Assembly: GCA_963422205.2 (NCBI GenBank) | Contig: CAXMWX010000007.1 | Location: forward strand, 64,001-128,000 | Direction of reading: 5' to 3' | DNA length: 64,000 nucleotides | Source: Gammaproteobacteria bacterium | Lineage (GTDB): Bacteria > Pseudomonadota > Gammaproteobacteria > Eutrophobiales > Eutrophobiaceae | Part shown: positions 7,158 to 64,000 of the stretch, piece after piece | How the letters are laid out: each line of letters begins with the position of its first letter | Numbering within the stretch: the stretch's first letter is position 1 | Notes under the pieces: model-generated | What the model was told of the DNA's origin: nothing | What the model saw: only the letters and a program-made list of their open reading frames with translations | Database searches by the model: none | Program-made: the position numbers and the translations under genes

Positions 7158-7538
7158 TCAATCATATTTGATATAGGTAAACCTCGGATCGGTCGGCGTT
7201 CCTTCTAAAGCATTGTTATCATCTACCCCCGGCTGCCACATCACCACCTCTTCAATCTGCTTTGCCAGGGCAAAATCTTTGGCGGTCACGCCCTTGGCGG
7301 CATGGGTCATCAACTTGACGATGACAAAGGCATAAGAGGCGGTTAAATCCGGGTGGTGCCAGGCCGCCTCTGCCAGATGCCCGACGGTATTGATCACCAT
7401 CAAGGTTCCCTTCCAGCCACTGGTCTTGTATCGTCGCCGTATCCAGCCGTCTTCGTAGTACCACGCTGGCAACTCCCGTTGCAGCTTATCGGTGATCTCC
7501 TCTTCCGTATACGTACTCTCATCTTGCGACTGTGTCAT
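7158..7538 (-). CDS. Pterin-4-alpha-carbinolamine dehydratase family protein (C1-cluster type)
   Basis: HLAEAAWHHPDL, LMTHAAKGVTAKDFALA. Confidence 0.88.
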   Translation of the reverse strand: MTQSQDESTYTEEEITDKLQRELPAWYYEDGWIRRRYKTSGWKGTLMVINTVGHLAEAAWHHPDLTASYAFVIVKLMTHAAKGVTAKDFALAKQIEEVVMWQPGVDDNNALEGTPTDPRFTYIKYD

Positions 7539-8244
7539 AGCATCTCTCCTCATCTTCGGTGTTGGTTTGTTTTGCAAATAACCGCTTCAATGTGAGCATC
7601 GCCGCCGCATCCAGCGATGCCACCCTGTCATGCTGCCTGCACAAGGCGCCCCGAAAGCCGAGATAGTCGGCTTGCAGCGGCAATAAGGCCGGCACATCTG
7701 CATGGCGCAGCGAACCGGCCAGGCCACAGAGCAACCCCGCCTCTTTGGCAGCACCGATGAACGCCACCAGGGCGCCTTGATCAAGACGTTGCCGGAGTGA
7801 ACCGGCGGCTTTGTCGGCGGTATCCAGCATCACGCCTTTGATGCCGGCGGCGGCGAGCAATGTACTATCGGGCATCATTCCCGCATGTTCGGCAAAAAAG
7901 ACCAGCACGAGGGACGCCCCCCGTGCGGTACAGCGGCCAAGTACGTTCAGGAACGGCGGCGTTACGGATACGCCGAATACCCCTGCCTTGACATAATCAA
8001 CGCCTGTGCTGTGCGTGGCCATGATGCGTTGTTCCATGTCCGGGCTGTGCATGGGAATATCGCCCGTGGTGGCGCTCACGACTACCCTGCCCGCCATGCA
8101 GTCGACTATTCTGGCGATCTCCTCGATAGCCAATGCGCCTAACACGCCCGTGGCCGGTTCTTTCACATCAACAATATCAGCACCAGCCCGCAGCGCCAGC
8201 CTGGCCTCAGCCAGGTTACGCACGCTAACCAGCATACCCGTCAT
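7519..8244 (-). CDS. (5-formylfuran-3-yl)methyl phosphate synthase (MfnB/Orf22, DUF556)
   Basis: MLVSVRNLAEA, GADIVDVKEP..G.LGA, VSATTGD, GVMLDTADK, GLAGSL, YLGFRGALC. Confidence 0.85.
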   Translation of the reverse strand: MTGMLVSVRNLAEARLALRAGADIVDVKEPATGVLGALAIEEIARIVDCMAGRVVVSATTGDIPMHSPDMEQRIMATHSTGVDYVKAGVFGVSVTPPFLNVLGRCTARGASLVLVFFAEHAGMMPDSTLLAAAGIKGVMLDTADKAAGSLRQRLDQGALVAFIGAAKEAGLLCGLAGSLRHADVPALLPLQADYLGFRGALCRQHDRVASLDAAAMLTLKRLFAKQTNTEDEERCYDTVAR

Positions 8245-8813
8245 GGGGTGTGCTGCCCATCGCTGGCATAGTAATCGGCCACGACTTCCTGCAACCACTG
8301 CCAGGCTTGCCGTTCTTTTTCACCGGCGGTTTTCTCTATGGCGATGGTCAGGTAGCGCAACTCCGCATCCACCTTATCCGGTGGCAGCCGGTCCAGCCGG
8401 CTCACCAGAATAGCCGCCTCCACCACCGCCGCCTGCGCCCGATTAAACCCCCGGAAACCGCCATGCCGCTGCTCGTATACCACAGCACAATGAAAACGCG
8501 GCCGCTGTACATCCTCTTCTATCTGCTCAACCCTGACCTCCACATGCGACAAGGCATCGGCCAGCATCTGTCCGGCGATGTGTGCCGCGGGCCGTAACGG
8601 CCAGTCGTATCGGCCGCTGAGACAACCGGCGATAATCCGCACATCATCGGTCATGTTGATCACGGCCTCGCCACAACGTTGCAGGTTCGCCAGGGTAACT
8701 GACGGCTTGAATGGGGCAATAACATAATATTGATCCTGCAAGCGGATCCCCATCGGGGCGATATGGCAACTCGCATCGTCGTTTAAGGTGGTGATCACGG
8801 TCTCGAAAATCAT
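8241..8813 (-). CDS. DUF447 family protein (Orf19 of H4MPT-linked C1 clusters)
   Basis: MIFETVITT, HIAPMG, APFKPSVTLANL, GFNRAQAAVVEAAILVSRL, IAIEKTAG. Confidence 0.85.
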   Translation of the reverse strand: MIFETVITTLNDDASCHIAPMGIRLQDQYYVIAPFKPSVTLANLQRCGEAVINMTDDVRIIAGCLSGRYDWPLRPAAHIAGQMLADALSHVEVRVEQIEEDVQRPRFHCAVVYEQRHGGFRGFNRAQAAVVEAAILVSRLDRLPPDKVDAELRYLTIAIEKTAGEKERQAWQWLQEVVADYYASDGQHTP

Positions 8814-10249
8814 GGCTTCTGCTGCCGGGTGCTGCCCGGTTTTTGGTACTCCTCTGCCAGCATAAACTGCTTTCTCAAGGTGTGTGCCGCCTTGCCAGAT
8901 TCAGTCGCCTGTTTTGGCACATCGGCGATCACCCCCCACGCCAGCTCCTCATCCTGCACATAACGTTTACCCAGCCGCAGCGCCACCTCGGCACGCGCCA
9001 GTTCAACCCCCATATAAAACGCATGGGCGGCATCATCCTGCAACAAGGCCAGCCGGGGGAAGAAGCTGAAGGCATCCTGGGCGGTCACCATGCCATCCCG
9101 GTTAAATACGTGGATTCCCGAATCTGAGACTTCAATCCGGTAGCTCGGATCACGAATCTGTGCGGCCAACTCCCTGATCTCATCCTCATCATAGGGAAAC
9201 GGCTTGCGCTCATGCCCTGCCAATAATGAACGATCTATGCCCTTGGGTAAACCGTCATTTTCCCTGGCGGCGAACATGATGCGGCGGGCCAGATCCGCCT
9301 CCCGTACCGCCGTGCGTGCATGGGGGCTGACGGCTGTTGTCAACACGTTCCTTATCCCCAACTCGGAAATGATGCCAAACAGCACGGCATTGATGCCGGT
9401 GGTATCGGCCTCGGTCAGCTCGGTCAGATTACCCACCCCCATCATCACCTCGATGTCCGGGTAGCGGGCGCAAAGCTCGGCATAACGTTGCAGGGATGCG
9501 GTAAAACCAAAATGCACGGGATCGAGGATGCTGTCAGCAATAAATGCCTGGCCCTGTGCCAGGAAACGCTCAATCAAGGCATACAATGATGCCATGTCTG
9601 TGTGGTCTTGTGGGATCACGATTGGGATGGCGTCCACCTCAGCGGCGATCCAGGCATTGCCCGGTTTCAGGCTCAACAGGTAATCTGCGCCCGCCCTGCC
9701 GGCGCGCAGCAAATCATCATCCTCCAGCGAATCAACGCTCACGCTAAAGCCCGCTTCTTTCAAGGCCATCACGCTCTCCTCCAGGTGTGGGAAAGCGGTA
9801 TCCGGCAGGCAACCCAGATCAATCACATCGGCCCCATCGGCCTGATAGGTACGGGCACGCTCGATGATCGCCGTCACATCCAGCATGGGCGCATCGACAA
9901 TCTCGGCGAACAGACGCACATCGTGCTTGTCCAGTGATAATGGCGCCGGCTGCTCGCCAAACAACACCGGCAAGTCCTTCACATCCACCGTGCCACGGAT
10001 AACAGGCCGCCCCAGCACCTCGGCCAGTTCCTGCAAGTTGCCCCGGCACAAGCCCGGCACGATCACTTTATCCACCCCATCGAGTGCCGACAGGCGGCGC
10101 TTTAACATCTGTGCGGTCATCAGTGCCGCTACGCTGACACCAATATTGCGGACTTCATAACTGAAATCACAGGGCTGCATCCCGGCAAGCACGTTATGCA
10201 GGCGCTTCTCGGCGAGCTTGCCAGTCACAAACAGGATGTGTTCGGTCAT
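8810..10249 (-). CDS. Dihydropteroate-synthase-related protein (Orf20/DUF6513), methanopterin biosynthesis
   Basis: ILFVTGKLAE, VAALMT, GADVIDLGCLP, MGVGNLTELTEADTTG, HAFYMGVELARAE, LGKRYVQDE. Confidence 0.85.
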   Translation of the reverse strand: MTEHILFVTGKLAEKRLHNVLAGMQPCDFSYEVRNIGVSVAALMTAQMLKRRLSALDGVDKVIVPGLCRGNLQELAEVLGRPVIRGTVDVKDLPVLFGEQPAPLSLDKHDVRLFAEIVDAPMLDVTAIIERARTYQADGADVIDLGCLPDTAFPHLEESVMALKEAGFSVSVDSLEDDDLLRAGRAGADYLLSLKPGNAWIAAEVDAIPIVIPQDHTDMASLYALIERFLAQGQAFIADSILDPVHFGFTASLQRYAELCARYPDIEVMMGVGNLTELTEADTTGINAVLFGIISELGIRNVLTTAVSPHARTAVREADLARRIMFAARENDGLPKGIDRSLLAGHERKPFPYDEDEIRELAAQIRDPSYRIEVSDSGIHVFNRDGMVTAQDAFSFFPRLALLQDDAAHAFYMGVELARAEVALRLGKRYVQDEELAWGVIADVPKQATESGKAAHTLRKQFMLAEEYQKPGSTRQQKP

Positions 10250-10420
10250 GATGGTCTCATCTGCTGCCTGATTTCTCTTCAAACTTGGTTCATAATAACC
10301 AGCTATCGGCGCACACATCCCCTGATTTTATCCGCATACCGGCATGAACGATATGGATATCCACGTTTAATTTATTGATTTATAAACGGTATAATGATTG
10401 ATGATGATCCTTTGATGCCC

Positions 10421-10436
10421 TGGCACAGTTTTCGCT
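10421..10436 (+). promoter_or_regulatory. Putative sigma-54 -24/-12 promoter of pqqCDE
   Basis: TGGCACAGTTTTCGCT has GG-N10-GC spacing, 55 nt upstream of the pqqC start. Confidence 0.6.
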
Positions 10437-10491
10437 GTCAATTAGCTGATGATCTCCAAACAGGCGCTGTCACTCACATACGAAAAACCCC

Positions 10492-11238
10492 ATGACACAG
10501 GAAAAACAAACACAAGACCAACCGGCCTGGTCAAAAGATGAGTTTGAGCAGCAGTTGCGTGCCAAGGAAAAATACTATCACATCAATCATCCTTTTCATG
10601 TGTTGATGAACACGGGCAAACTGGACAAGGCCGCAATTCAGGGGTGGGTGGCCAATCGCTATTATTATCAGACCACCATTCCGGTAAAAGATGCCGCCAT
10701 CATGGCCAACTGCCGTGACCGGGATGTGCGCCGTGCCTGGGTGCAGCGCATCATTGACCATGACGGCACGGCGGGCGAGGATGGCGGTATCGAAGCCTGG
10801 TTGCAGTTAGGCGAGGCCGTGGGATTGAGCCGAGAGGAGTTGATTTCTGAAGAGCATGTCCTGCCCGGCGTGCGCTTTGCGATTGATGCGTACTACCACT
10901 TTGCCCGAACGGCCACCTGGCAGGAGGCGGCCTGTTCTTCACTCACCGAGTTGTTTGCCCCCAAAATTCACCAGCGGCGGCTGGAGAACTGGCCTGAACA
11001 CTACACCTGGATTGATGAGAAGGGCTACAGCTACTTCCGCAAGCGCCTGGGCGAGGCACGCCGTGATGTGGCGCATGGCCTTGAGATCACGCTGGATTAT
11101 TTCAAGAGCCGTGCCGAACAAGAGCGCGGCCTGACCATCCTGCAACTGAAACTGGACATTCTGTGGGCGATGCTGGATGCCATGTGGCTGGCCTATATCG
11201 AGAAAAAACCGCCGTATGATTGTGTTGATCATGGCTGA
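10492..11238 (+). CDS. pqqC: Pyrroloquinoline-quinone synthase
   Basis: [53 protein letters not shown]. Confidence 0.96.
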
Positions 11239-11494
11239 TCAGATCCCGGAATTTGCGCCCACCTTTCGCTTTCAATGGGAAGCGGCACAGAACTGCCATG
11301 TCGTGTTGTATCCTGAAGGCATGGTGAAATTGAGCCAAAGCGCCGAGGAGATATTGAAGCGTTGTGACGGCCAGCACACCACAGCCGAGATCATCGCCGA
11401 GTTGCAGCAGGCGTTTAACGAGCAGGACTTGAAAAACGAGATAGAACACTTCATTGAACAGGCGATAAAAAATGGCTGGATTAGATATAAATAA
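11231..11494 (+). CDS. pqqD: PqqA-binding chaperone
   Basis: [29 protein letters not shown]; lies between pqqC and pqqE. Confidence 0.94.
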
Positions 11495-12614
11495 TGGCAA
11501 ACCCCTGTGGCTGCTGGCGGAGTTGACCTACCGCTGCCCGCTACAGTGTCCGTATTGTTCCAACCCGGTTGAGATCGCCAACTATGATAACGAACTGACT
11601 ACCGAGGACTGGCTCAGGGTAATGCGCGAGGCGCGAGAGATGGGCGCAACACAACTGGGTTTCTCCGGTGGCGAGCCGCTGGTGCGTCGGGATTTGGAAG
11701 AGTTGATTGCAGAAGCCCGGCGTTTGGGTTTTTATACCAACCTCATCACTTCCGGTGTCGGCATGGATGAAGCCAGAGTGAAAGCCTTTAAAGATGCAGG
11801 ACTGGATCACATTCAAATCAGTTTTCAGGCCAGCGATGAAGAGTTGAACAACTATCTGGGCGGCACCCGAAGTTTTCAACACAAGCAGGATATGGCCAGG
11901 GTAGTAAAAAAGTACGCATACCCTATGGTTCTCAATATCGTTTTGCATCGTAAGAACGTTGATCAAATCCGTGACATCCTGGACATGACGGTGGAGTTAA
12001 ATGCCGATTATGTGGAACTGGCCAGTACGCAATACTACGGCTGGTCACGGGTGAATGTGGAACACCTGTTGCCGAGCCGTGAACAACTTGAACAGGCAGA
12101 GCGCATCGCCAGGGAATATCAGCAGAAGATGCAAGACAGCATGAAGATCATCTATGTCATCCCCGATTATTTTGAAAACCGCCCCAAGGCCTGCATGAAT
12201 GGCTGGGGAGCGATATTTTTAACCATCGCCCCGGATGGCAGCGCCCTACCCTGTCATGCCGCCGCCCAGTTGCCCGGTCTTACATTTCCCAATGTAAAAA
12301 ATCACAGTATTGAAGAGATATGGAATGAATCGGACACGTTCAACAAATTCCGTGGCTTTGACTGGATGCAGGAGCCGTGCAAAAGCTGTCCGGAAAAGGA
12401 AAAAGACTTCGGCGGCTGCCGGTGCCAGGCTTATATGCTGACTGGCGATGCTGCCAATGCGGATCCGGTGTGCGATAAATCCCCTTACCATCAGCAGCTG
12501 CACGATGAGGTTGAGCGTATCGGCAGGCTGGCCACAGAGCAACGGGCAGAGGCGAAACCGCTGATATTTCGCAACATGAAAAATTCGAAAAAAATCATCC
12601 AGGAGGCCGTCTAG
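11472..12614 (+). CDS. pqqE: Radical SAM/SPASM PqqA peptide cyclase
   Basis: [42 protein letters not shown]. Confidence 0.96.
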
Positions 12615-13449
12615 CCAGGAGAGTTTCCCCAGAGCAGTCTTTGAGCGCAAGGGCAACATCGCGCGCCTGCCGGTTGTGCTTGATGTCATGCACGCGGAGG
12701 ATTGCCACGCCAGCAGAGGTTGCCAGTGCGGTTGTGGCACAGGTCGCACCGAGCAGTTCGCGGGAGTCCCCTACATCACAAATCGAACCCATGAAGCGTT
12801 TGCGGCTGGCGCCCAGCAGCACGGCATAGGGCGTATCGACAAATTCCTGCAAGTTAGCGATCAAGTGCAGGTTATGCTGCTTCGTTTTACCAAAACCAAT
12901 GCCCGGATCGATGATAATATTTTCTGCCTTGACGCCGGCCGCCATGGCCGCCTCCGCACGTGCCAGAAGATACGCCTTTACCTCGGCCACCACATCGGTG
13001 TACTGCGGATGATCCTGCATGGTGCCCGGCTCGCCCTGCATGTGCATCATGACCAAAGGCAAGCCGGCATCGGCGGCCAGCGATAACATCGCCGCATCCT
13101 CGGTAGCCGCCGAGACATCATTGATCATGGTCGCCCCCTGCCGGATTGCACCCGCAGCCACTTCAGCCGATGTTGTGTCGATGCTGATGGGATACTGTGC
13201 TGGCAGCCTTGCTTTTAGCATCTCTAACACCGGTAACACGCGCTGTAATTGCTCCGCCGCACTCACTCTGGCCGCCCCCGGTCGGGTGGACTCACCGCCA
13301 ATATCGATAATATCAGCCCCTTGATCGATCATGTCCATGGCATGTGTAACCGCCCTGTCAACATCTGCGAAGGCCCCGCCATCGGAGAAGCTATCCGGCG
13401 TGACATTCAAAATGCCCATCAGCAGGGGCGATCTGGCAAGATCACGCAT
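12595..13449 (-). CDS. folP: Dihydropteroate synthase
   Basis: [47 protein letters not shown]. Confidence 0.96.
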
Positions 13450-19926: not shown

Positions 19927-21192
19927 TTAATTTAACACGGCAGCGTTATGGCCGACTGCCTGAGTCGCGCCCAGATAGGCCTCCATGATGCGGGTCGGGT
20001 CTTTGAGCAGGTGATCCTTCCACTTGCCCAGTTTCAGTTTGCCTTGGATAAGCCCGCGCAATACCCCAACATGATTGGTCAGCCCTAACGCCTGCGCGCC
20101 GACCAGCACATCATCCTGGAACTGCAAACTGAGATAACGATAACGTTGCTCATCGCTGAGTTCAGCCGACTCACCGCCATCCACACCCATCCACAAGCCG
20201 TAAGAGGTAGAGATCAAGCCTATGGTATCCAACACATTCATGTTCACACTGCCCTGATGCCGGATGTCACTGCCCGCCATATTCATGGCAGCGATGCGCC
20301 CATGATCAGCCGCTGTTGGCTGGATCGCCTGGACAGTAAACTCGCCGGTGGAAAAATCCTTGCCCTGACACACATCACCCGCGGCATAGACATCCTCATC
20401 GCTGCTTTGCAGGCGATCATTCACCAGTACGCCGAAATCCATTGCAAGACCGCTGCCTTCCAGAAATTGCGTATTCGCCTTCACTCCGGTGGCGGAAATC
20501 AACACATCAGCGGCCAGCACATCGCCGTTGTCCAGTGTCACATTCAAGCCATCGCCGCGCTCGGTAATGGCCTCGACTTTTGTCGAGGTAAGCACCTTGA
20601 TCCCCTTCGCCTCACACCATTTTTTGATCAAGCCGCCGGCCGCCTGGTTCATCATACGCGGCACCATACGATCTTCCATTTCAATCACGGTCAGACTAAC
20701 ACCACGCAAGGCCAGCGATTCCAGGATGATGCACCCAATAAAGCCCGCGCCCATCAGCACAACGCTGGCGCCTTCGGTGGCCTTGGCTGCGATGTTACGA
20801 CCATCTTCCAGCGTCCAGCAGGCATGAATATTCGGCAAGTCCATGCCGGGGATGGGGGGGCTGACCGGCTGCGAGCCGGTGGCGATCAGCAGCTTGTCAT
20901 AAGCCAGGGTAGCACCGGAAGCCAGATGCACCGTATGCTGCTTCGGGGCGAGCCCACTGACCATCTCCTGCAATACCTTGATTTGCCTGTCCCGGTAATG
21001 GCTGGCTGATTTACGCAGGTAAGTACCGCGCTCATCGATCTTATCGGTCAGATAATAGGGCAAGGCCATGCGTGAGTAAGGCGGCTCTTTCTCATCGCCC
21101 ACCAACGTGATCTCGCTGCCCGGATCAACCTTCGCCAGGGTCTCGGCAGCGATCACCCCGGCCGGCCCGGCGCCAATGATCATATAATTCAT
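19927..21192 (-). CDS. FAD-dependent NAD oxidoreductase subunit (AorC-like)
   Basis: IIGAGPAG, YDKLLIATGS, MGAGFIG, DVYAAGDV. Confidence 0.88.
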   Translation of the reverse strand: MNYMIIGAGPAGVIAAETLAKVDPGSEITLVGDEKEPPYSRMALPYYLTDKIDERGTYLRKSASHYRDRQIKVLQEMVSGLAPKQHTVHLASGATLAYDKLLIATGSQPVSPPIPGMDLPNIHACWTLEDGRNIAAKATEGASVVLMGAGFIGCIILESLALRGVSLTVIEMEDRMVPRMMNQAAGGLIKKWCEAKGIKVLTSTKVEAITERGDGLNVTLDNGDVLAADVLISATGVKANTQFLEGSGLAMDFGVLVNDRLQSSDEDVYAAGDVCQGKDFSTGEFTVQAIQPTAADHGRIAAMNMAGSDIRHQGSVNMNVLDTIGLISTSYGLWMGVDGGESAELSDEQRYRYLSLQFQDDVLVGAQALGLTNHVGVLRGLIQGKLKLGKWKDHLLKDPTRIMEAYLGATQAVGHNAAVLN

Positions 21193-21195
21193 TTA

Positions 21196-21519
21196 TTAGC
21201 GCTCCTGATCAACAAATCGTCCGCACGACCGACACACCATGCGCCCTGTCTGCTGGCGTCTGGCAAGCCTGCGGGCAGCAATACCCACGCCTGCCATGAA
21301 AATACCAACGGCTGTCACCAGGACAATAAAGTCGTCAATCGTGCCGGTGGCGATATTGATGTAGGGAATATCTGTCAGGGGCAGCGCCGTTGTCGCTTCA
21401 GCCTGCACCACCGCCGAGGGGAACATACCGACCACGGCCCCAATCAGGGCGATGTACAGGCGATGAGAGAGCAGCGACAGGCGGTTTGCGCCCGATAAGC
21501 TCGCGGCGATATGCCTCAC
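21196..21519 (-). CDS. Small membrane protein inside the aor operon
   Basis: GTG start overlaps the aorB stop; two hydrophobic segments; C-terminal CRSC. Confidence 0.45.
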   Translation of the reverse strand: MRHIAASLSGANRLSLLSHRLYIALIGAVVGMFPSAVVQAEATTALPLTDIPYINIATGTIDDFIVLVTAVGIFMAGVGIAARRLARRQQTGRMVCRSCGRFVDQER

Positions 21520-23366
21520 AGCCCTAACCGATGCCGCGTCTCGGTGGTGGGTACGCCCTGCTCATCCCAGCCCCTGGCGGCGTAATAGGCTGGCAGCATC
21601 TTGTCCAGCTCGTTGACCTTGCCCTTGGCCGGGCCGGTTTCCGCCGCCTCTTTCAACAAACGCTGCGGCAGCGTGTCATCGGCAGCGGTCAAACCCGCCG
21701 CCAGATTGAACTCGCGCTCCATATTCCAGATCCGCTCCCCCACCTCAACCAGAGTCTCCGGCGTCCACTCTCCCTCACAGGCAGCATTGATTTGCGGGGC
21801 AATGTCCTCCAGCGTCCAGGCAAAGGTGGTAAACACGCACAGGCCCGCCGAATCCACCGCGGCGGTCGCATCCTGAAATGCCTTGGTTAGCTCGGCCTTG
21901 CCATCTGTGACCAGCGGGTCGGTTTTCTCCGGGATCCCCATCACTTCCGAGGAGACAGTATAGCCACGCAAATGGCAGGCGCCCCGGTTGGAAGTCGCAT
22001 AAGCCAGGCCCATGCCCTGGATACCACGGGGGTCGTAGGCCGGGAACTCCTGCCCCTTCACCGTCATGGAGAACTCTGGATGACCGTATTTCTCGCACAG
22101 ACGCTTGGAACCCAGGCCCAGTTCACGGCCGAAACCCTCGCCTTTGCAGGTCGCCTCCGCCGCCCAGGCCAGCGCCTTGGCAGAGCCAAAGGTGAACTCT
22201 ACCCCGTCGGTTTGCTCTTTGGTAATGGCGCCGGTTTCATACAATTCCATGGCCGCCGCCACCGTGGCACCGAACGAGATCGGATCAATGCCGTCCTCAT
22301 TGCAGAGAAAGTTGGCGTAGGTCAACACATCCAGATCATCAATCCCGGTGTCTGAGCCCAGCGCCCAGGCGGCTTCATACTCCAGCCCACCGGATGCGCC
22401 CCAGTATTCCGGCTTGTTTTCAATCGTGAAATGCCCCTTGTCGATGGTTGAGATGCGACCACAGGCGATGGTGCAGGCAAAACAACCGGCATTGGTGACC
22501 AGATTCGGCTTGCCATCGCCCGGACGTGGCTCATACATGGCCTCGGCGGAAATCTTGCTCGCCCCTTCGAACTGCACCTCGCGCATGTTGCGTGTGGGCA
22601 TGGCGCCGACTTCGTTGATCACATTCATCAAGACCTGGGTGCCAAACTTCGGCAGGCCCTCGCCAGAGACCGGATGCTCGGCCAGCGTCTTTTTGCCCTC
22701 GTTCACGGCCTGCATGAAGGCGGCGGGATCATGGATATTGCCCACGCCCCGGGTGCCGCGCACCGCCACAGCTTTGAGATTCTTTGAGGCCATCACCGTA
22801 CCCACACCAGAACGGCCAGCCGCACGATGCAGATCATTGACGATGGCGGCATACATGCAGCCTTTCTCTGCGCTTCTGCCCACCGCGGCGATACGCAATA
22901 AAGGATCCTGGTATTTCGCATGCAACCATTCATCCGCCTGCCAGACGGACTTGCCCCAGATGGCATCGGCCGACAACAATTCGGCCTGCTCATTTTCGAT
23001 GTAGAGGTACACCGGCCTGGGAGACTTGCCCTCAAAGATGACCATGTCATAACCGGCCGATTTTAATTCAGCACCGATATAGCCACCCGAATTGGAGCAG
23101 GCGATAGCGCCCGTGAGCGGGCTTTTGGTAACGACCGAATAGCGCCCGGCGGTGGAGGCCATGGTGCCGGTCAGCGGCCCGGTGGTCATGATCAGTTTGT
23201 TATCCGGCCCCAGCGCATCGCATTGGGGATCGATCTCCTCGGTCAGGTATTTTGTCGCCAGACCGCGCTGCCCCAGGTATTGCTGCGCCCACTTCATATT
23301 CAGCGGTTCGTTGCTGATGTCGCCGGTCGTCAAATTCACTCTGAGTACATTGTTTGCCCAAGCCAT
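21516..23366 (-). CDS. Aldehyde:ferredoxin oxidoreductase, W-bis-pyranopterin subunit (AorB-like)
   Basis: TKSPLTG, RAAGRSGVGTVMASKNLKA, CFACTIAC, EYE, DPISFG, ATSNRGACH, YYAARGWD. Confidence 0.94.
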   Translation of the reverse strand: MAWANNVLRVNLTTGDISNEPLNMKWAQQYLGQRGLATKYLTEEIDPQCDALGPDNKLIMTTGPLTGTMASTAGRYSVVTKSPLTGAIACSNSGGYIGAELKSAGYDMVIFEGKSPRPVYLYIENEQAELLSADAIWGKSVWQADEWLHAKYQDPLLRIAAVGRSAEKGCMYAAIVNDLHRAAGRSGVGTVMASKNLKAVAVRGTRGVGNIHDPAAFMQAVNEGKKTLAEHPVSGEGLPKFGTQVLMNVINEVGAMPTRNMREVQFEGASKISAEAMYEPRPGDGKPNLVTNAGCFACTIACGRISTIDKGHFTIENKPEYWGASGGLEYEAAWALGSDTGIDDLDVLTYANFLCNEDGIDPISFGATVAAAMELYETGAITKEQTDGVEFTFGSAKALAWAAEATCKGEGFGRELGLGSKRLCEKYGHPEFSMTVKGQEFPAYDPRGIQGMGLAYATSNRGACHLRGYTVSSEVMGIPEKTDPLVTDGKAELTKAFQDATAAVDSAGLCVFTTFAWTLEDIAPQINAACEGEWTPETLVEVGERIWNMEREFNLAAGLTAADDTLPQRLLKEAAETGPAKGKVNELDKMLPAYYAARGWDEQGVPTTETRHRLGL

Positions 23367-23378
23367 AATAATAACCTC

Positions 23379-23855
23379 CTATGCTGATGCGCCGAGTTCG
23401 GCGCTTTGTGCTGCATGTGCACGCATACGATTGAGTCCTGTGTGATCGGCATCGACATAGGTAATCGCCGCAGTCGGACACGCCTTGGCGCATTCAGGAT
23501 CACCGCCACACAAATCACATTTATACACCACCTGTGAATCCTGGCTGTAATTCACAGTGCCAAACGGGCAGGCAATGGTGCATACCTTGCAGCCCACACA
23601 AACATCGTCCAGCACATCTTTGGCCCCGGTGGCCTCGTTGATGACGATCGCCTCCACCGGGCAGGCATGCAGACACCAGGCCTCAGCACATTGCGTACAG
23701 GTATACGGGACGAAGCGCCCCTCTTCGTGAAAGGTAAATATCTTGATTCGAGATTTTGACGGGTTAAATACGCCTTCAGCCTGGTAGGAACACGCCATTT
23801 CACACTGTAGACAACCCGTGCATTTCTCCGGCTCAATCTGAAGTGCCTTTAACAT
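23379..23855 (-). CDS. 4x[4Fe-4S] polyferredoxin subunit (AorA-like)
   Basis: CTGCLQCEMAC, CTQC..WC..ACP, CVGCKVCTIACP, KCDLC..EC..ACP. Confidence 0.92.
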   Translation of the reverse strand: MLKALQIEPEKCTGCLQCEMACSYQAEGVFNPSKSRIKIFTFHEEGRFVPYTCTQCAEAWCLHACPVEAIVINEATGAKDVLDDVCVGCKVCTIACPFGTVNYSQDSQVVYKCDLCGGDPECAKACPTAAITYVDADHTGLNRMRAHAAQSAELGASA

Positions 23856-39619: not shown

Positions 39620-40675
39620 TTACTCCTGCTCATCCAATTCATACGCTTTGCTTTTTTGAGAGTAGGTAATCCCCGGCGTTTTTTCAGCCCGCTCCCCGGT
39701 GATAGCGCGCCTGAAAACTTCGGTTATCACCGGGTTTTTATCCCGTCTTTTATCAAAATTGAGTCTGGGATAATTAAATTCGTAGAACACGCCATGCGTA
39801 TTGCCGACATTTTTCCCGCCGGTGAAGTCGAAGTAGATCACATTCGGGCTATTGAGATTTCTCGCCGTATTACCCAGGCGATCAGGATTGATGACATCGG
39901 CACAATCAAGCACTTTATCTCGCTCATTGATTGTGACATAAATCCGATTGCCAAATGACAGCTTCGGCATCCATTCGCCGTGCGATTTTGAATCAACGTC
40001 CGGCTGGCAGAGAATGATATTTTCAAACATACGCATCTCGCCATTGTAGTGAACGGGATTACGCACAAACTCCTCCAGCAGGCGATTGCCCAGACTGTAT
40101 GACATAAAACTTAAACGAATGTCACAGTTGCGATTGAAGGGGCGTGAGCACAGATACCTCGACAGCGCCTCCAGGATGCGGTCAAGCGCGGCGACAGAAT
40201 CTCTGGCATTGCCTCTTGCCCTTCGATACTCGACCGGTCCAGCACCAACCAGCAAGCCGCCAGGATTACTGGGCCAGGAAAAGGCGATAACGTTAACGTC
40301 ATAGAGTTTCTCAAGGGCGTAGCATTTTTTCAGGTTTTTCTTGAAAGATTTATTAAAACCATGAACGAAGAAGAGCCAGCGCTTTGATACGTTTCCCTCA
40401 TTCATTTCAAAAAGCATTCTGTCAAATAACTGTCGTGAGGGTGATTTGCCGGCGTCCAGGCGGGTTTTCTTTTCCGGCTGTAAATCAACGCACCAGGTGC
40501 CATCAGTTTTCCTTTTCGCTGTGGCGACACGAAGTTCATCCGGCGCCTCGTTCAAGCTGTCACCGAAGATTCTTTCATTTCCGGCAGTCTCATTGATAAC
40601 CTTTCTATTAGTGACGATGATTATCATAATAATTTTCTCCGTTTTGATGTTGGTCGTATCATTTTCAAGAGTCAT
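39620..40675 (-). CDS. DUF900-family alpha/beta hydrolase (true start may be 40627)
   Basis: FFVHGFN, IAFSWPS, SYSLGN nucleophile elbow, D.VL, RLG; lower GC. Confidence 0.8.
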   Translation of the reverse strand: MTLENDTTNIKTEKIIMIIIVTNRKVINETAGNERIFGDSLNEAPDELRVATAKRKTDGTWCVDLQPEKKTRLDAGKSPSRQLFDRMLFEMNEGNVSKRWLFFVHGFNKSFKKNLKKCYALEKLYDVNVIAFSWPSNPGGLLVGAGPVEYRRARGNARDSVAALDRILEALSRYLCSRPFNRNCDIRLSFMSYSLGNRLLEEFVRNPVHYNGEMRMFENIILCQPDVDSKSHGEWMPKLSFGNRIYVTINERDKVLDCADVINPDRLGNTARNLNSPNVIYFDFTGGKNVGNTHGVFYEFNYPRLNFDKRRDKNPVITEVFRRAITGERAEKTPGITYSQKSKAYELDEQE

Positions 40676-42079: not shown

Positions 42080-42745
42080 ATGAATATGTCTAAGCAAATT
42101 GATCCGTATGAAACCAGGCTGCATCCGGGGAATGCCTACTGGATGGCTAAAATTTCAAAGCTCATTTATGCGTGTAAAGCAGGCAGTAAACACCCTGATG
42201 AGGCATTGATATTAAGTCAATTAAAGGACGAGGATTCGGGTTTTCTTTCTGTTGTGGGCGAGGATAAAAATACTGCCCAGGCAGCCTTGATAGAGCATAA
42301 GGATTTTTTATGCATGGTTTTCCGGGGTACTGATGAGTTGGGGGACTGGTTGGACAACATTAATGCGTTTCCTGTAAAAGTGTTGTTTGGTGATTTTCAT
42401 CGTGGTTTCTGGGGTTCTGTTAATGATGTTTGGGACAAGATAAATGGTCGGTATGAAGAATGCCGGGGAGAGAGAAAGCGGCCTTTATTTATCACTGGGC
42501 ATAGTCTGGGTGGTGCGATGGCCACGATAGCGGCTTCAAGGCTTATTCATGACGATAAGCCATTTACTTCAGTCTATACATTTGGTCAGCCAAGGGCGAT
42601 GAGCCGTGAGACGGCTCAGTTTTTTAGTGTAGAGGATAAAGGACGTTGTCACCGGTTTTTAAATAATGAAGACATTGTCACCCGTGTCCCCTCAAGATTG
42701 ATGGGGTATGGTCATGTTGGTAATTGTTTGTATATTGATAGGGCT
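42080..42745 (+). pseudogene. Lipase class 3, C-terminally truncated
   Basis: VFRGT, FHRGF, ITGHSLGGA, YTFGQPR, DIVTRVP; runs abruptly into the lysozyme fragment. Confidence 0.75.
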
Positions 42746-42950
42746 TGGGTGTGACTGCCGATGGCATCATTGGGCCAATCACACGGGCAAGAGCAGATCG
42801 GGCAGATGTCAGTGTCTTTCTGCCTGATTATCTCTCTCACCGGGGCAGGTTCTATGCTCGACTGGCAGAGAAGGATTCCTCACAGGTTAAGTTTCTGCGT
42901 GGCTGGCTTAAGCGCTGTTTCTACTTCAACACACCATCTATCAGGAGGTA
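42745..42950 (+). pseudogene. C-terminal fragment of a GH108-family phage lysozyme
   Basis: GVTADGIIGPIT peptidoglycan-binding motif and R..FY..L.....SQVKFLRGWLKR. Confidence 0.7.
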
Positions 42951-58519: not shown

Positions 58520-59647
58520 TTACTGGCAGTGAAACCCGCTGTGCTGGCACCAGAAGGCGAGCGCAGCGGGGATGCTGACATGGTTATTTACATGCCGTTG
58601 TTGTGAGGAGGCAGCATAAGCATAACGGCGCAGGCGATTTAACGCACCGATCGGCCGATGTGCTGGCAAGGTATGCCAGGGGGCGAAGGTGATACGTTCA
58701 CAAAAATCAATTTGCTCGGCCGCCATGAAGGATTGTGACGGAATGCTGATCCTTGCCACCGGAATGAAGGCCGAATCCGTCTCTGCCCAGGGCTCGGTTG
58801 GATCATTGATGCTCATGCCGAGCGCTGGCTTTTGCCGTTGTATGGCGAACTGAAAACAGGCCGCTTGTTCTGCCAGCTCGGCGGCCAATTGTTTTTGCAA
58901 AAAGTCAGGATCGGTATGCTCATCAACGGCAGGTGCTTCGGCGTGACGCTCAGCACAGGGCTTGGCTGCATATTTCACGTTATGCGGGCCGAGTTTATAC
59001 GGCGTGATACTGAAGTAGTCAGGGTCCAGCAGGCTGGCGGGCGGGGCACTCAGCGTGATCCGGGCGGTAAACAACTCTTTCAGTTTCCAACTGACGGGGT
59101 TTAGCGTGGGAAAGAAAAAGCCGACAAAATCCTCCGGCCGGGCGACCAGTTGATTGTAATCATGCACATTACGCACAAAGAATACCGGGCTGTTGGTCAG
59201 CAGAAAATCCTGGCTGGTCGTGTCCACATCATCTGCCTCCAGTGGCTCGCCCGCCACCTGCATCAGTTTAATGGCCATCCCTCGGGCATCATGGCGGTAA
59301 TCCTGGCTGGTCTTGAGATTAAAATGGCCATTGGAAAACCGAATCCAGCTACGATAGCGCCTCCCCGGCTGGGCGAACACGCCGTATTGCAAGTCGGCCG
59401 CAAGATCCTCGTGTACCACAAAATATGCCCGCAAGCAGGCATGGCTTTTGGCATGGGCGCCACGGGCGGTGTAGGTGGTCCGGTAGGTATCCACCAGCTT
59501 TCGAAAATTCACCTGTGTCGCCCTGTCCTGCTCGGCCTCATCGGCGCGTAAGGCCTCCTGGCTGAGATCCTGCTGCTCATCGGTACAGGCCACAAGCAAC
59601 CAAGACAACAGGGCGAGGATTGCCGGGGTGCCGGTCAAGGCCCGCAT
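58520..59647 (-). CDS. Catalase-related heme lipoprotein (small, AOS-domain-like)
   Basis: Lipobox LLVAC; distal RGAHAKSH, RFSNG, DARGMAIKL, DFLLTNSPVFF; proximal NRLRRYAY. Confidence 0.85.
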   Translation of the reverse strand: MRALTGTPAILALLSWLLVACTDEQQDLSQEALRADEAEQDRATQVNFRKLVDTYRTTYTARGAHAKSHACLRAYFVVHEDLAADLQYGVFAQPGRRYRSWIRFSNGHFNLKTSQDYRHDARGMAIKLMQVAGEPLEADDVDTTSQDFLLTNSPVFFVRNVHDYNQLVARPEDFVGFFFPTLNPVSWKLKELFTARITLSAPPASLLDPDYFSITPYKLGPHNVKYAAKPCAERHAEAPAVDEHTDPDFLQKQLAAELAEQAACFQFAIQRQKPALGMSINDPTEPWAETDSAFIPVARISIPSQSFMAAEQIDFCERITFAPWHTLPAHRPIGALNRLRRYAYAASSQQRHVNNHVSIPAALAFWCQHSGFHCQ

Positions 59648-59648
59648 G

Positions 59649-61367
59649 TCACAGGGTCTTCAGATAAGCAAGCAGGGCATGGATGTCAGCATCGCTCAAG
59701 GCGGGCAGCCCATCGTAACCGCTGCCGTATTCATGCCCGGCATGGCTGTTACCGGGCAGGCGGGTATCAAACAGAAACGCCCCCGGCTGTGCCTGCTGCA
59801 CATAACCGACCTTCACCGGGTCGTACTCCCAACTGCCCAGATAGAACTGCTTGCTGCGTTTCGCTGCCGGCAACAGCAACTCATACAAGTTCGGCACAGA
59901 GCCGTTATGCAGAAAGGGGGCGCTGCTCCAGATACCGTTTAACGGCCTGGCCTTATAGGCGAGCAAGGCCCGGTCGGATACCTCCTCGCCCGCAGCGATG
60001 ATCGCACCGTTGACATACTTGGGCGGATGAATCACCGCAGCATGTCCCAGGCGGCGTGAATCCCGCTTCGCCAGATAGGACTGCAAGGGATTATTCTTTA
60101 ATACGCCCACCATCAGATTGTTGAGCATGAAGATGGCCGGTGCCTCGGCGGCCAGCGGCTCGCCACTGACATAATAACGTGGCCTGCCCTCCAGCAGGCC
60201 GCTCTTGCCACGGTGTTCAAGGGCATTCCTTGCCATCAGCGGGTCGGTGTTGATCTCATCTAAGGTACTCATACGCACCTTGATCAAACGCCCCGGGTCC
60301 GCCCGGTCAATATCCTGATGACAACGCAGACAGTATGTCTCATACAGCGGCCGGCCACGTGCCGCCGCGACGGGATCGATGGGCGGGAAAAAATCAGGCC
60401 ACAGGGGCGATTGCAACGTGCTGATGTGCGTCTCGATCTTACGCAGGTTGGCGGCGGCAATCGATGAGCGATAGCCCAGATCAAGACCTAAAAATGAGAC
60501 CGGCGTTGTCTCCATCTGTCCGAATACGCCGATGACCTCGCCGATATTGCGCGCCAGGGCACCGACATGGGCGTTCGATTGTGAACCGTTCCACTCGACA
60601 TAATCGTGTTGCGGGGTATCCCAGAGATAAGGGTAGCTGGCGGGTGCGTTCGGCTCGTTATAATTGCCCTTTGCCTGTGTCAGCAGCAGCGCCTTGTTGA
60701 GGATCGCACCGAAGGCATCCAGGCGGGTGTAGCCGTAAGGCGTGTTGCTGTGGTCGCGCTGGTTGGTGCGTCTTCTGTCTTCATAGACCATCTCAAGCTG
60801 CTGCCTGAGTGCAGCCAGTTCATCTGGTGTGACCTTCGGGCCGTGAATGCCTGCTCCCAGACGCTGAAGTTTAGGCTGATCGGCCAGGGTCGCCGCCAGC
60901 GAGGCTTCCAGTTCCTGCAGAAATAATTGCAAGTCCAGCATGGCCTGACCGCCATCGATGTGCAGCAAGATGTTGTTATAGCGTATCGCCTGGGTATGGC
61001 AGGCGGCACAGGTCAGCCCCATCGACTCACCCGCCCTGCTGATACCGATAGCCAGGCCGTCCGGGTTGCGGGCCGATTTTTTGCCGGGCAGAAAACCATA
61101 CCGCAGCATGTTTTCCGGGGCGCGCAACAAGGCCGTCTTGTCGGCCTGTTCCAGGTGCAGAAACACATCATACGGCAGCAGTTTCGAGCCTTGATTGATG
61201 TAATAAAACCACTGCCGATCCTGCTCGGTCCAATTTTGCTGTAGATATGTGACACTCGCCGGGGCGGTCAGATACGTCCGTTGCAGGCTTGTTCCCGGCT
61301 TATCCTCGGCACTGACGGGCTGGGCGAGCAATATCAATGCGGATAAAATCGTTAATCCGGGCGGCAT
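59649..61367 (-). CDS. Secreted di-heme cytochrome c, RoxA/MauG-like
   Basis: Signal peptide; CAACH and CLRCH; YKARPLNGIWSSAPFLHNGSVPNL; GNSHAGHEY. Confidence 0.85.
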   Translation of the reverse strand: MPPGLTILSALILLAQPVSAEDKPGTSLQRTYLTAPASVTYLQQNWTEQDRQWFYYINQGSKLLPYDVFLHLEQADKTALLRAPENMLRYGFLPGKKSARNPDGLAIGISRAGESMGLTCAACHTQAIRYNNILLHIDGGQAMLDLQLFLQELEASLAATLADQPKLQRLGAGIHGPKVTPDELAALRQQLEMVYEDRRRTNQRDHSNTPYGYTRLDAFGAILNKALLLTQAKGNYNEPNAPASYPYLWDTPQHDYVEWNGSQSNAHVGALARNIGEVIGVFGQMETTPVSFLGLDLGYRSSIAAANLRKIETHISTLQSPLWPDFFPPIDPVAAARGRPLYETYCLRCHQDIDRADPGRLIKVRMSTLDEINTDPLMARNALEHRGKSGLLEGRPRYYVSGEPLAAEAPAIFMLNNLMVGVLKNNPLQSYLAKRDSRRLGHAAVIHPPKYVNGAIIAAGEEVSDRALLAYKARPLNGIWSSAPFLHNGSVPNLYELLLPAAKRSKQFYLGSWEYDPVKVGYVQQAQPGAFLFDTRLPGNSHAGHEYGSGYDGLPALSDADIHALLAYLKTL

Positions 61368-61368
61368 G

Positions 61369-62748
61369 TTAATCCTGTGACAATAGGGTGTTGAGCAGGT
61401 TATTCTGAAAACTCACATTACCCGTCAGGCTGTTGTGATCCTCACATAACAGTATCGCATAGGCCAATGGAAAAAAGCTGTATTTATTTCGCTGGATGCT
61501 GGGGTCGAGGGTATCACGCCCTAACAGAGATGCCTTGGTCACCGAACCATCGCCCGGCTCCAGCAGCAGCTGGCCATAATCAACTCCGGCCACTGGCTGG
61601 GTGACATCTTCCGGGTACATCCTGATCTCGGAAATCCCGTTCACCTCCTCCACCAGAATACGCGCCGGTGTCAGCCTGCAATCGCCACCGAATACCACCA
61701 GCATGGGATGATCCTCCGGCAATGGCACGGTCAACGACCAGACAAACCGCCGGGCACGTTCAATGTATTTTTCAAAATACTGTTGCAGGTTGGCATAATG
61801 CTGCTCGCCCTGCTTCGGGTCGGCAAACTCAGCAATGATGGCGGCCTTCACGTGGGGGTTGAATATTGACCATTGAAAACGGCGCCAGGTCTCAACTGAA
61901 AACAAATCCCGCTGCAAGGGCTTGCCGGTATTGGTCACCAGCCAGTTATTTAAAGGATGGGGGAGTAATTGATACAGGCTGGGCATCGTTGCCATCGTCT
62001 CGGGCGGGATCTTCCGCAACCCAATCTTGATGCCATCAATAAAGGCCCGCAGTATCTTGACGGAGCCAAGGTTCGGTGCGCCGAGCAAAACCACCCGGCG
62101 CACCCGCTGACCGCCGTACATATTCACCGGAAAATCGTTATCATCCACCACATCTTCCCGCCCGTAGCGGATATAGTACCGGGCAACCAGCCCACCCATG
62201 CTGTGGGCGACCAGATCCACTTTCAACTGATCATCACCATGATCACGGCGAATTTGATCGATGAAGTCGGCCAGCTTCCCGGCACTGACGACATTATCCT
62301 GACGCCAGTCGTAGTGAAACTCATAGAGGTACTTTTTGCCCGGCTCGATTTTTTGCCCCGGGATACGGAGTTCATACCCGCCTGCCTCGGATAATGTGTG
62401 CAGAATTTTGCCATAGAAATCCTTGCCGGCCGTATGTTCAGCGACCGCAAACGCCGATACATCGCCCGTCTGGCTGACATAGGTGGGGGGGGAGAATTTA
62501 AGTGCCAGGTCTCGTCTGTCGCTGGTGAGCAATTTATACAAGGGGCCAGGCCATAGCTCTGCCCCCGTATCATAATTACGCAGTTTTGCCCCCAGGATGC
62601 CGTGGATGAAGACCACCGGTGGCTGTACAACCCCCTTGTCAGTCTGCCCGTACAGCCGGGGCAAATCCGGGCGCTGTGAGCGCTCCAACAGCGTATCAAC
62701 GTATAACGTTACACCGACAATGGCGATAATAAAAAGCAGCATTTTCAT
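61369..62748 (-). CDS. Exported LCAT/PGAP1-like lipase/acyltransferase
   Basis: N-terminal hydrophobic anchor; VFIHGILG, YDWRQD, DLVAHSMGG, PGDGSVT, late His (EDHNSL). Confidence 0.85.
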   Translation of the reverse strand: MKMLLFIIAIVGVTLYVDTLLERSQRPDLPRLYGQTDKGVVQPPVVFIHGILGAKLRNYDTGAELWPGPLYKLLTSDRRDLALKFSPPTYVSQTGDVSAFAVAEHTAGKDFYGKILHTLSEAGGYELRIPGQKIEPGKKYLYEFHYDWRQDNVVSAGKLADFIDQIRRDHGDDQLKVDLVAHSMGGLVARYYIRYGREDVVDDNDFPVNMYGGQRVRRVVLLGAPNLGSVKILRAFIDGIKIGLRKIPPETMATMPSLYQLLPHPLNNWLVTNTGKPLQRDLFSVETWRRFQWSIFNPHVKAAIIAEFADPKQGEQHYANLQQYFEKYIERARRFVWSLTVPLPEDHPMLVVFGGDCRLTPARILVEEVNGISEIRMYPEDVTQPVAGVDYGQLLLEPGDGSVTKASLLGRDTLDPSIQRNKYSFFPLAYAILLCEDHNSLTGNVSFQNNLLNTLLSQD

Positions 62749-63294
62749 TTAACTTATTATATCCATTTTTATCCTGATATATTCAACCATTACGATAATA
62801 CACACTGACCTGATCAGGCTCTGCTGCAGTGCTTGACCCTTCGGCAGGCGGGCCGTTGCCATGCTCTCATTATCTCTTTGGTGGCGGCAAACAGGCAATC
62901 TCCTAAGGTGCTGCCATGCCCCCGGCAGGCGTAAATTCAATGGCAAAATTCAATGACCAGGGAAATAACAATAATTATTTGAATTATCAGGATATTTTAA
63001 CATATACACTGGCTGCATGCCGATCTGCTGTCAAGTCGCCTGCCTGCCGGACAGGGCGCTGCATTCACCACAGCCGGCCCCTCGAACAGGTCGCCAGCCA
63101 GCACCGCTATCTTCGCTGATGCAACGAATCACCGCCTTAAAAATACGAAGGAGATAAATCAATCATGTTTACATACACTGTGGCTTATTGCTATGGTGTG
63201 ACCTGATGATTTGTGTGGTTAGTTTCGTTCAGCAGCAGTGAGTTAGAAATTAATCATCGTAAATAAAACAAGCCAACACGAAGGTATCTCGACA

Positions 63295-64000
63295 ATGCAA
63301 CCCCCCCAGAAAAATTCCCCTGAAGCAACGGTGTTTGATGCGATTTCCAAGCCGCCTCTGGTTATCGGCAAGTATGAAATCCTCCAGGAGATTGGCAAAG
63401 GCAGCATGGGCACGGTGTATTCAGCACATGATCCTTTCTCTGCCAAAGATGTGGCTATCAAGGTCGCCCACCCGGAATATGTCGTTCAAACAGAGGACGG
63501 CGAGCGTTTTCGCAAACTGTTTTTTAATGAGGCCCATGCCGCCGGTGTGCTGGATCATCCCAGCATCCTGCACCTGTTTGATGCGGGCGTGGATGGGGAT
63601 CTGTGTTATCTGGTGATGGAATACGTGCCGGGGGGACAGACCTTGCAGCACTATTGCAGGCCGGATAATCTGCTGTCTACCCGGGAAGTGGTCGGGATTA
63701 TTTTCAAATGCGCCAAGGCACTGGATTATGCACACCGCCAAGGCATTATTCATCGTGACATCAAGCCGAGTAATATCCTGTTCACGGAAGATCGTGATAT
63801 CAGAATCTCTGATTTCAGTATTGCCCGTATCAATCGTGCCGATCAAACGGCGACACAATTTGACGGGTTTCTCGGCTCCCCGCTGTACATGTCGCCCGAA
63901 CAAATCAATGAATGGCCGATCTCAAGCAATACCGATATTTTCTCTCTCGGCGTGGTGATGTATGAAATGTTGACCGGTACCCACCCGTTCAAAGGCGATA
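63295..64000 (+). CDS. Ser/Thr protein kinase (runs off the window end)
   Basis: IGKYEILQEIGKGSMGTVY, VAIK, IHRDIKPSN, DFS, GSPLYMSPE. Confidence 0.9.
   Translation, partial: MQPPQKNSPEATVFDAISKPPLVIGKYEILQEIGKGSMGTVYSAHDPFSAKDVAIKVAHPEYVVQTEDGERFRKLFFNEAHAAGVLDHPSILHLFDAGVDGDLCYLVMEYVPGGQTLQHYCRPDNLLSTREVVGIIFKCAKALDYAHRQGIIHRDIKPSNILFTEDRDIRISDFSIARINRADQTATQFDGFLGSPLYMSPEQINEWPISSNTDIFSLGVVMYEMLTGTHPFKGD

Follow-up and report, generated by a model that had tools for sequence, protein, structure and literature searches.

Two described systems resemble the locus reported here. In Pseudomonas aeruginosa, the 10S-dioxygenase PA2077 turns oleic acid into its 10-hydroperoxide, a reaction for which both of its hemes are required, and the 7,10-diol synthase PA2078 acts on this 10-hydroperoxide without needing its own hemes (PMC4496055). 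Both are periplasmic (634 and 624 amino acids [aa], with heme-binding His130/His375 and His130/His365, respectively), both carry the motif PY(F/L)HNGSVP, and both are related to RoxA within a subfamily that has been named FadCcp (PMC4496055; Estupinan et al. 2015). Cells are harmed or killed when PA2077 is expressed on its own, and PA2078 lifts this toxicity (PMC4496055). In corals, a catalase-type allene oxide synthase (AOS) is found beside a lipoxygenase; catalase-related AOS and hydroperoxide lyase may be fused to their lipoxygenase or lie next to it. We analyzed a three-gene operon in a 64,000-nucleotide stretch of a Gammaproteobacteria bacterium genome (assembly GCA_963422205.2, contig CAXMWX010000007.1, positions 64,001 to 128,000; hereafter, the window) that encodes a lipase-like hydrolase, a di-heme c protein, and a small catalase-like lipoprotein, which we call the mini-catalase. 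By analogy with the two systems above, we lean, on balance, toward reading this trio as an envelope fatty-acid oxygenation cassette in which an unsaturated acyl chain freed by the lipase is converted to a hydroperoxide by the di-heme protein and the hydroperoxide is consumed by the mini-catalase.

The genes are co-oriented on the minus strand, in the order hydrolase (61369-62748; an open reading frame [ORF] of 459 aa), di-heme protein (59649-61367; 572 aa), and mini-catalase (58520-59647; 375 aa). At both junctions a stop codon is followed by a single C and then by ATG, leaving a gap of 1 nt; motif coordinates given below for these genes are likewise on the minus strand. An earlier sequence-only reading of the window had described three co-oriented genes with 1-nt gaps, AHSMGG in the first product, two CxxCH sites and PFLHNGSVP in the second, and distal His/Asn and proximal RxxxY in the third, and all of these features are present. 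It had also assigned export signals to all three proteins, and this survives in part. As judged by eye, without a signal-peptide predictor, the di-heme protein has a classical signal peptide ending VSA/ED and the mini-catalase has a lipobox (LLVAC21; 59585-59599), but the hydrophobic stretch at the start of the hydrolase has no obvious cleavage site and probably anchors the protein in the membrane instead of being cleaved off.

The family assignment of the di-heme protein links the locus to P. aeruginosa. The NCBIfam model NF040606 matches this protein at 562.2 bits against a cutoff of 150, covering residues 46-571 and profile positions 1-524. For comparison we used a tandem pair from genome G401 that was matched by published attributes to PA2077 and PA2078 (634 and 624 aa, heme His130/His375 and His130/His365, motif His553), and we refer to its members as PA2077-like and PA2078-like. 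They score 530 and 491 bits on NF040606, and NF040606 can therefore be equated with the FadCcp family. Full-length BLASTP alignments of the window protein with each of them show 33% identity (E values of 2e-76 and 6e-74).

The details of the heme sites agree with this placement. Site 1 is CAACH (residues 120-124; 60996-61010) and site 2 is CLRCH (residues 346-350; 60318-60332), with a spacing of 226 residues versus 199 in RoxA and 235-245 in PA2078/PA2077; the motif PFLHNGSVP occupies residues 484-492 (His487; 59892-59918). Trp259 (within 60582-60599) aligns with the inter-heme Trp of PA2077 (W251; W302 in RoxA), at a position where PA2078 has Ser, and His545 (within 59724-59750) aligns with the sixth-ligand His of the C-terminal heme (PA2077 H611, RoxA H641). 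From this alignment, a ligand role is predicted for the Trp259 and His545 positions. The CxxCH sites, PFLHNGSVP, Trp259, and His545 are invariant in 30 di-heme sequences. The window protein thus has in common with PA2077 and PA2078 the NF040606 subfamily, end-to-end similarity, a similar CxxCH spacing, the PxxHNGSVP motif, the C-terminal His ligand position, and a signal peptide, as well as, with PA2077 alone, the inter-heme Trp. In both systems a dioxygenase-type gene is co-transcribed with a gene for a second enzyme that could remove a hydroperoxide. The systems differ in that the window has a single di-heme gene instead of a duplicated pair, the presumed hydroperoxide consumer is an unrelated catalase-fold protein, and the operon includes a lipase gene and has no LysR regulator adjacent to it. 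The proposal in the sequence-only reading that a di-heme protein stands in for lipoxygenase therefore has an experimental precedent in PA2077/PA2078, within the same subfamily.

That reading had also described the di-heme protein as RoxA-like, which is correct for its fold but not for its sequence. Among solved structures compared with its predicted model (pLDDT 75) by VIA-align, RoxA (4b2n) ranks first, with 380 residues aligned at an rmsd of 4.1 and Z 12.4, followed by a bacterial cytochrome c peroxidase (CCP; Z 7.1), MauG (3l4m; Z 6.3), a MauG-like copper-homeostasis protein (6e1c; Z 6.2), and BthA (Z 4.7); a Foldseek search of the same model against the PDB gave no match at E <= 0.001. An extracytoplasmic di-heme dioxygenase architecture is therefore shared with RoxA. 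In sequence, by contrast, a PDB search aligned only a motif of 34 residues with RoxA. The two proteins share the PF21419 motif, and the nearest relatives are the FadCcp proteins. Membership in RoxA, RoxB, or RoxC was considered and rejected, as the equivalog models NF050033, NF050034, and NF051462 gave 38.9, 48.0, and 47.8 bits, from the motif region only, versus cutoffs of 900-1000.

The mini-catalase resembles the coral enzyme in fold. Pfam Catalase (PF00199) matches it with an E value of 2.3e-12 over residues 56-168 only, and its sole sequence match in the PDB is 3e4w (E value of 8.8e-6, about 22% identity). Its AlphaFold model (pLDDT 79) has the catalase core fold without the C-terminal helical domain. 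VIA-align ranks the coral catalase-type AOS (cAOS) structures highest (3dy5, Z 26.6; 1u5u, Z 26.3), ahead of 3e4w (Z 24.6) and true catalases (Z 23.9 and 23.2), as the sequence-only reading had anticipated; 287 residues are aligned with the coral structures, and residues 25-354 of the model are aligned to 1u5u. Foldseek places 3e4y/3e4w on top with a probability of 1.00. The distal His65 lies in ARGAHAKSH (59441-59467), Asn152 in LLTNSPVFF (59177-59203), and the proximal Arg340 and Tyr344 in NRLRRYAYAAS (58607-58639), and R62, H65, R103, R340, and Y344 are invariant in 20 mini-catalase sequences. We assign roles to these residues by analogy with R64, H67, R102, and Y353 of cAOS (PMC5617202). 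The N-terminus has a lipobox-type Cys in 12 of the 20 aligned relatives and a plain hydrophobic helix in the other 8, so the protein would be membrane-tethered either way.

Fold, distal His, Arg residues, and proximal Tyr are thus common to the mini-catalase and the coral system, as is the principle of coupling a dioxygenase with a small enzyme of the catalase fold, natural fusions included. The differences are that the upstream oxygenase in the window is a di-heme c protein rather than a lipoxygenase, that Thr-His is replaced by Ala-His, that identity is 16%, and that the mini-catalase is periplasmic and either a lipoprotein or membrane-anchored. Another small bacterial catalase-core protein is the 33-kDa protein of Mycobacterium avium ssp. 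paratuberculosis that was solved as 3e4w/3e4y, which differs from the mini-catalase in its genomic setting and at the low level of identity given above. The mycobacterial protein reportedly has peroxidase activity with organic hydroperoxides.

The hydrolase belongs to the LCAT family, as its Pfam score lies above the cutoff (PF02450, E value of 8.5e-12, 45.4 bits versus 21; a partial match, residues 144-263 only) and the GxSxG elbow and a Ser-Asp-His triad are all present. The nucleophile is Ser183 in AHSMGG (residues 181-186; 62191-62208), and the triad is completed by Asp400 in PGDGSV (61540-61557) and His438 in EDHNSL (61426-61443). S183, D400, and H438 are invariant across an alignment of 19 orthologues. 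The protein also matches several lipase families in Pfam, and in its nearest ESM Atlas clusters, LCAT is found in 86-99% of the members.

The trio arrangement is conserved far beyond chance. A scan of one genome per species yielded 305 mini-catalase relatives, of which the best 80 loci were kept; gene presence was scored by tblastn with the three window proteins, and synteny was counted over the 62 loci for which 3600 nt or more are available upstream of the catalase gene. A di-heme gene is present in 61 of these 62 loci, and lipase and di-heme genes occur in the window order in 54, bearing out the neighborhood co-occurrence of the three families that had been anticipated from the sequence. 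The eight lipase-less loci are L020, L070, and six sharing a 27-28%-identical di-heme gene (four of the six are titled Arenicella). In 24 of the 80 loci, a gap of 1.09-1.48 kb separates the di-heme and catalase genes; in the seven such loci that were translated it holds a membrane protein of 426-428 aa, and the only one of these proteins scanned (from L037) matches Pfam Acyl_transf_3. The record titles of related loci name gammaproteobacterial metagenome-assembled genomes, Methylophaga, Thiotrichaceae, Methylophilaceae, and Methylotenera. Few loci retain the flanking genes, with a homologue of the upstream kinase gene near the cassette in 1 of 80 and the downstream neighbors UDG, uvrC, and pgsA recurring in 12-15 of 80 only, and the trio is therefore more cohesive than its surroundings.

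Anchoring the comparison on the di-heme family gives a wider view. NF040606 scores above its cutoff in 25 of 401 sampled Pseudomonadota genomes, the source genome included, and we examined 20 loci from 17 NF040606-positive genomes. A mini-catalase adjoins the NF040606 gene in 8 of the 20 and the window-type LCAT lipase in none. Among the 103 of 143 chosen neighboring ORFs that were scanned with Pfam, other lipase or alpha/beta-hydrolase families (Lipase_3, Abhydrolase_3 with Abhydrolase_11, and Hydrolase_4) adjoin the di-heme gene at four loci (L092, L093, L094, and L101). In the genus of genome G087, the PF21419 motif is matched in 33 of 34 genomes and the tandem pair is found in 2 of 34, while a di-heme gene with a catalase-like gene occurs in all three loci examined, G401 included.

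Cytochrome P450 genes adjoin the NF040606 gene at another four of the 20 loci (L082, 6675-7988; L090, 11005-12297; L096, 6432-7715; L097, 9935-11164). We considered whether these could be CYP74-type hydroperoxide enzymes and rejected the idea, because ETTS is retained in the I-helix, the FGxGxHxCxG loop is normal, and no signal peptide is present. A search with one of them (L097) showed a resemblance to MycG and other ordinary class-I P450s, and the P450s beside di-heme genes look like a distinct, cytoplasmic-looking family of class-I type. At two loci (L084, 6081-7910, and L095, 5734-7548, both on the minus strand), a second, more distant RoxA-like di-heme paralogue of about 605 aa (133 bits on NF040606, below the cutoff) adjoins an NF040606 and mini-catalase pair; a LysR regulator and either a TonB-dependent receptor or a lipocalin are encoded there as well.

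The phylogeny of the family indicates that the association with mini-catalases is not confined to one lineage. We built a quick maximum-likelihood tree of 49 proteins, comprising the window protein, 22 of 64 near-full-length orthologues (the remainder being dropped for size), the proteins of the 20 family loci, four G401 proteins, and two outgroups. The window protein falls in a clade of 20 (SH-aLRT 100), distinct from that of the PA2077/PA2078-like pair, which is sister to a mini-catalase-associated di-heme gene (SH-aLRT 99). G401 itself also carries a separate di-heme and mini-catalase pair. Overall, the catalase association is spread over at least five separate clades of the tree.

Fusion proteins provide a further view of which activities are coupled to mini-catalases. 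We assembled 22 mini-catalase relatives of 658-2000 aa, of which 20 were scanned with Pfam and two (P0258 and P0260) were classified by precomputed domains. Four of the 22 are fused, in both orders, to an NF040606 di-heme domain (171-573 bits) and two to a patatin phospholipase; these fusions support the coupling of the mini-catalase to the di-heme enzyme and to lipids. Eight (P0242, P0244, and P0257-P0262) carry an animal-heme-peroxidase domain, whose family (PF03098) includes cyclooxygenase-type fatty-acid dioxygenases. The others are fused to a LodA-type amine oxidase (2/22), a DyP-type protein (2/22), a FAD_binding_4 domain of the FAD-linked oxidase type (1/22), or a helicase (1/22, possibly a gene-calling artifact), and two have no recognized partner. 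Some of the animal-heme-peroxidase fusions are found in records named Streptomyces or Actinoplanes.

The analyses above establish family memberships, conserved catalytic residues, folds, synteny, and fusions; from these we infer the substrate, the reaction, and the order of steps as follows. At the periplasmic face, the membrane-anchored LCAT-type hydrolase would release or transfer an unsaturated acyl chain from membrane or exogenous lipid. The soluble periplasmic di-heme enzyme would then use O2, like PA2077, to convert a monounsaturated fatty acid to an allylic hydroperoxide. The membrane-tethered mini-catalase would consume this toxic hydroperoxide by isomerizing, cleaving, or reducing it, doing the job that PA2078 does in P. 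aeruginosa and that the catalase-type AOS does beside lipoxygenase in corals. The toxicity of PA2077 in the absence of PA2078 would offer a reason for the translational coupling of a dioxygenase to its hydroperoxide consumer. The cassette may serve to detoxify free unsaturated fatty acids, to produce oxylipin signals, or to do both. There are precedents for each: one report describes 10S-dioxygenase (10S-DOX) products of palmitoleic acid in Arctic marine sediments, attributed to bacteria of three genera and read as free-fatty-acid detoxification (PMC8704379), and two others describe P. aeruginosa oleate-diol-synthase products that drive a quorum-sensing system and virulence (PMC5155153, PMC6377657).

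So interpreted, the cassette is a variant of the P. aeruginosa oleate-diol-synthase system. The sequence-only reading had put the pathway forward as a candidate new one, but it is not new in kind, given that a di-heme fatty-acid dioxygenase pathway is already known from FadCcp. Our targeted literature searches found no paper linking a catalase-related protein or an LCAT-type lipase to di-heme fatty-acid oxygenases.

Several observations weigh against the interpretation of the trio as a fatty-acid oxygenation cassette. Identity of the di-heme protein to characterized enzymes is only 33%, and that pair already has two different activities. Aligned pairwise, the di-heme protein has an 11-residue gap where RoxA Phe317 and PA2077 Phe269 lie, and its clade (30 sequences) has no conserved Phe in the vicinity; with this region deleted, its distal pocket would differ. 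At 12 of the 20 family loci, tblastn detected no mini-catalase within its limit. Enzymes of the LCAT family may transfer acyl groups instead of acting as lipases. In the mini-catalase, the Thr that precedes the distal His in cAOS (T66-H67) is missing, the window protein having Ala64-His65; the residue at this position is Ala or Ser in the 20 aligned sequences, and several orthologues have Val-His, as in true catalases. A Thr-His pair is said to be a "hallmark" of catalase-related enzymes that act on fatty-acid hydroperoxides. The distal Asn column also varies among the 20 sequences (N, D, or T). LodA-type oxidases release H2O2, and the fusions to LodA and FAD-linked oxidase domains suggest that H2O2, not a lipid hydroperoxide, is the substrate of some relatives. 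Finally, the mini-catalase is the only PF00199 match in the 98%-complete source genome, and it could simply be the cell's periplasmic peroxide scavenger.

The last points bear on the strongest competing explanation, which we regard as unlikely. It is possible that the operon serves peroxide defense of the envelope, with the di-heme protein being a cytochrome c peroxidase, the mini-catalase removing H2O2 or pre-formed lipid hydroperoxides by peroxidase or catalase activity, and the lipase excising oxidized acyl chains from damaged phospholipids. Apart from the lack of another PF00199 protein in the genome, the Val-His orthologues, and the relatives fused to LodA (two) and FAD_binding_4 (one), oxidases of types that release H2O2, this explanation has on its side the automatic name given to NF040606 by NCBI ("di-heme-cytochrome C peroxidase") and the relationship of the di-heme fold to bacterial CCPs and to MauG. 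However, the CCP_MauG family PF03150 has no match in the di-heme protein at E <= 0.01, whereas a canonical PF03150 peroxidase is encoded elsewhere in the source genome, outside the window (C9:47961-48410). The sole characterized members of NF040606 are a dioxygenase and a hydroperoxide isomerase, and the best structural match by a wide margin is to a dioxygenase, RoxA (Z 12.4 versus 7.1). Two peroxide removers coupled to a lipase would also be an odd redundancy.

A second explanation takes the likeness to RoxA literally, with the di-heme protein splitting an isoprenoid or unsaturated-lipid double bond into carbonyls and the mini-catalase handling side-product peroxides. RoxA is the closest solved structure and shares with the window protein the PF21419 motif, the inter-heme Trp, and the His ligand. 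Nevertheless, we consider this quite improbable: the likeness in sequence is confined to 34 residues, the RoxA/B/C models fail at 39-48 bits, the equivalent of Phe317, which is essential in RoxA (PMC4496055), is unaligned in the di-heme protein, and the neighboring genes encode lipases rather than terpenoid enzymes.

Di-heme enzymes of the CCP superfamily are often encoded beside their protein substrates, as are MauG, which modifies methylamine dehydrogenase, and the MauG-like copper-homeostasis protein, MauG-like enzymes in general modifying partner proteins. An oxidative maturation of the adjacent mini-catalase or its heme by the di-heme protein would suit the tight pairing and fusions of the two and the appearance of MauG (3l4m) and 6e1c among the fold matches, but we give it hardly any credence, since MauG matches the fold only half as well as RoxA does, many NF040606 members have no mini-catalase and are paired with lipases or P450s, and the characterized members act on fatty acids.

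A more far-reaching interpretation can also be put forward, although we find it doubtful. The di-heme and mini-catalase pair might be a widespread bacterial counterpart of the eukaryotic lipoxygenase/allene oxide synthase tandem, and, together with the lipase, it might yield a new class of envelope-derived oxylipins (epoxides, ketols, diols, or short aldehydes) that are made from the lipids of the organism itself or of a partner and serve as signals rather than mere detoxification products. PA2077/PA2078 would then be a derived special case of an older module. Host lipids as the substrate, a possibility raised in the sequence-only reading, are pure conjecture.

Bacterial oxylipin synthesis by di-heme enzymes has so far been known from one P. 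aeruginosa operon, yet the NF040606 family turns out to be common, and its members often pair with a catalase-fold protein and with changing lipases. Work on one such operon could reveal what a large family of bacterial mini-catalases does and whether PA2078 can be replaced by a hydroperoxide converter of the catalase fold. It could also supply candidate genes behind the fatty-acid oxidation signal ("10S-DOX") recorded from marine particles and sediments by geochemists (PMC8704379). The lipoxygenase profile PF00305 was silent in the source genome and in control genomes alike and is uninformative.

Upstream of the operon lies a 546-nt intergenic region (62749-63294) in which the ORF list shows no reading frame and which is presumed to be the promoter region of the operon. 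Two sigma-70-like matches (63023-62994 and 62898-62869) lie on its minus strand; over the full region the count is six versus 4.2 +/- 2.1 in shuffled sequence, which is no excess. Beyond it, a divergent gene on the plus strand (63295-63999, running past the window end) encodes a Ser/Thr protein kinase (Pfam Pkinase, E value of 2.5e-50).

The sequence-only reading had further suggested that the cassette might feed the AOR, a tungsten-type aldehyde:ferredoxin oxidoreductase (AOR; 21519-23366; PF01314, E value of 1.2e-143). The AOR gene is 35 kb away, with unrelated genes between, and this link is not supported. The AOR gene lies in a minus-strand segment (19930-23855) that also encodes a polyferredoxin and a pyridine-nucleotide-disulfide oxidoreductase. 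Two further lipase-type genes are found in the window, encoding a DUF900 alpha/beta hydrolase (39623-40675, minus strand) and a class-3 lipase (42080-42751, plus strand), and neither adjoins the cassette. Lastly, a gene set of the kind used to make C1 cofactors of the methanofuran/tetrahydromethanopterin type (4-HFC-P synthase, DUF447, DUF6513, and a pterin-binding enzyme) lies in the region 7522-13449, along with genes for PqqC-like and radical-SAM/SPASM proteins; together these suggest a methylotroph-like metabolism for the source organism.

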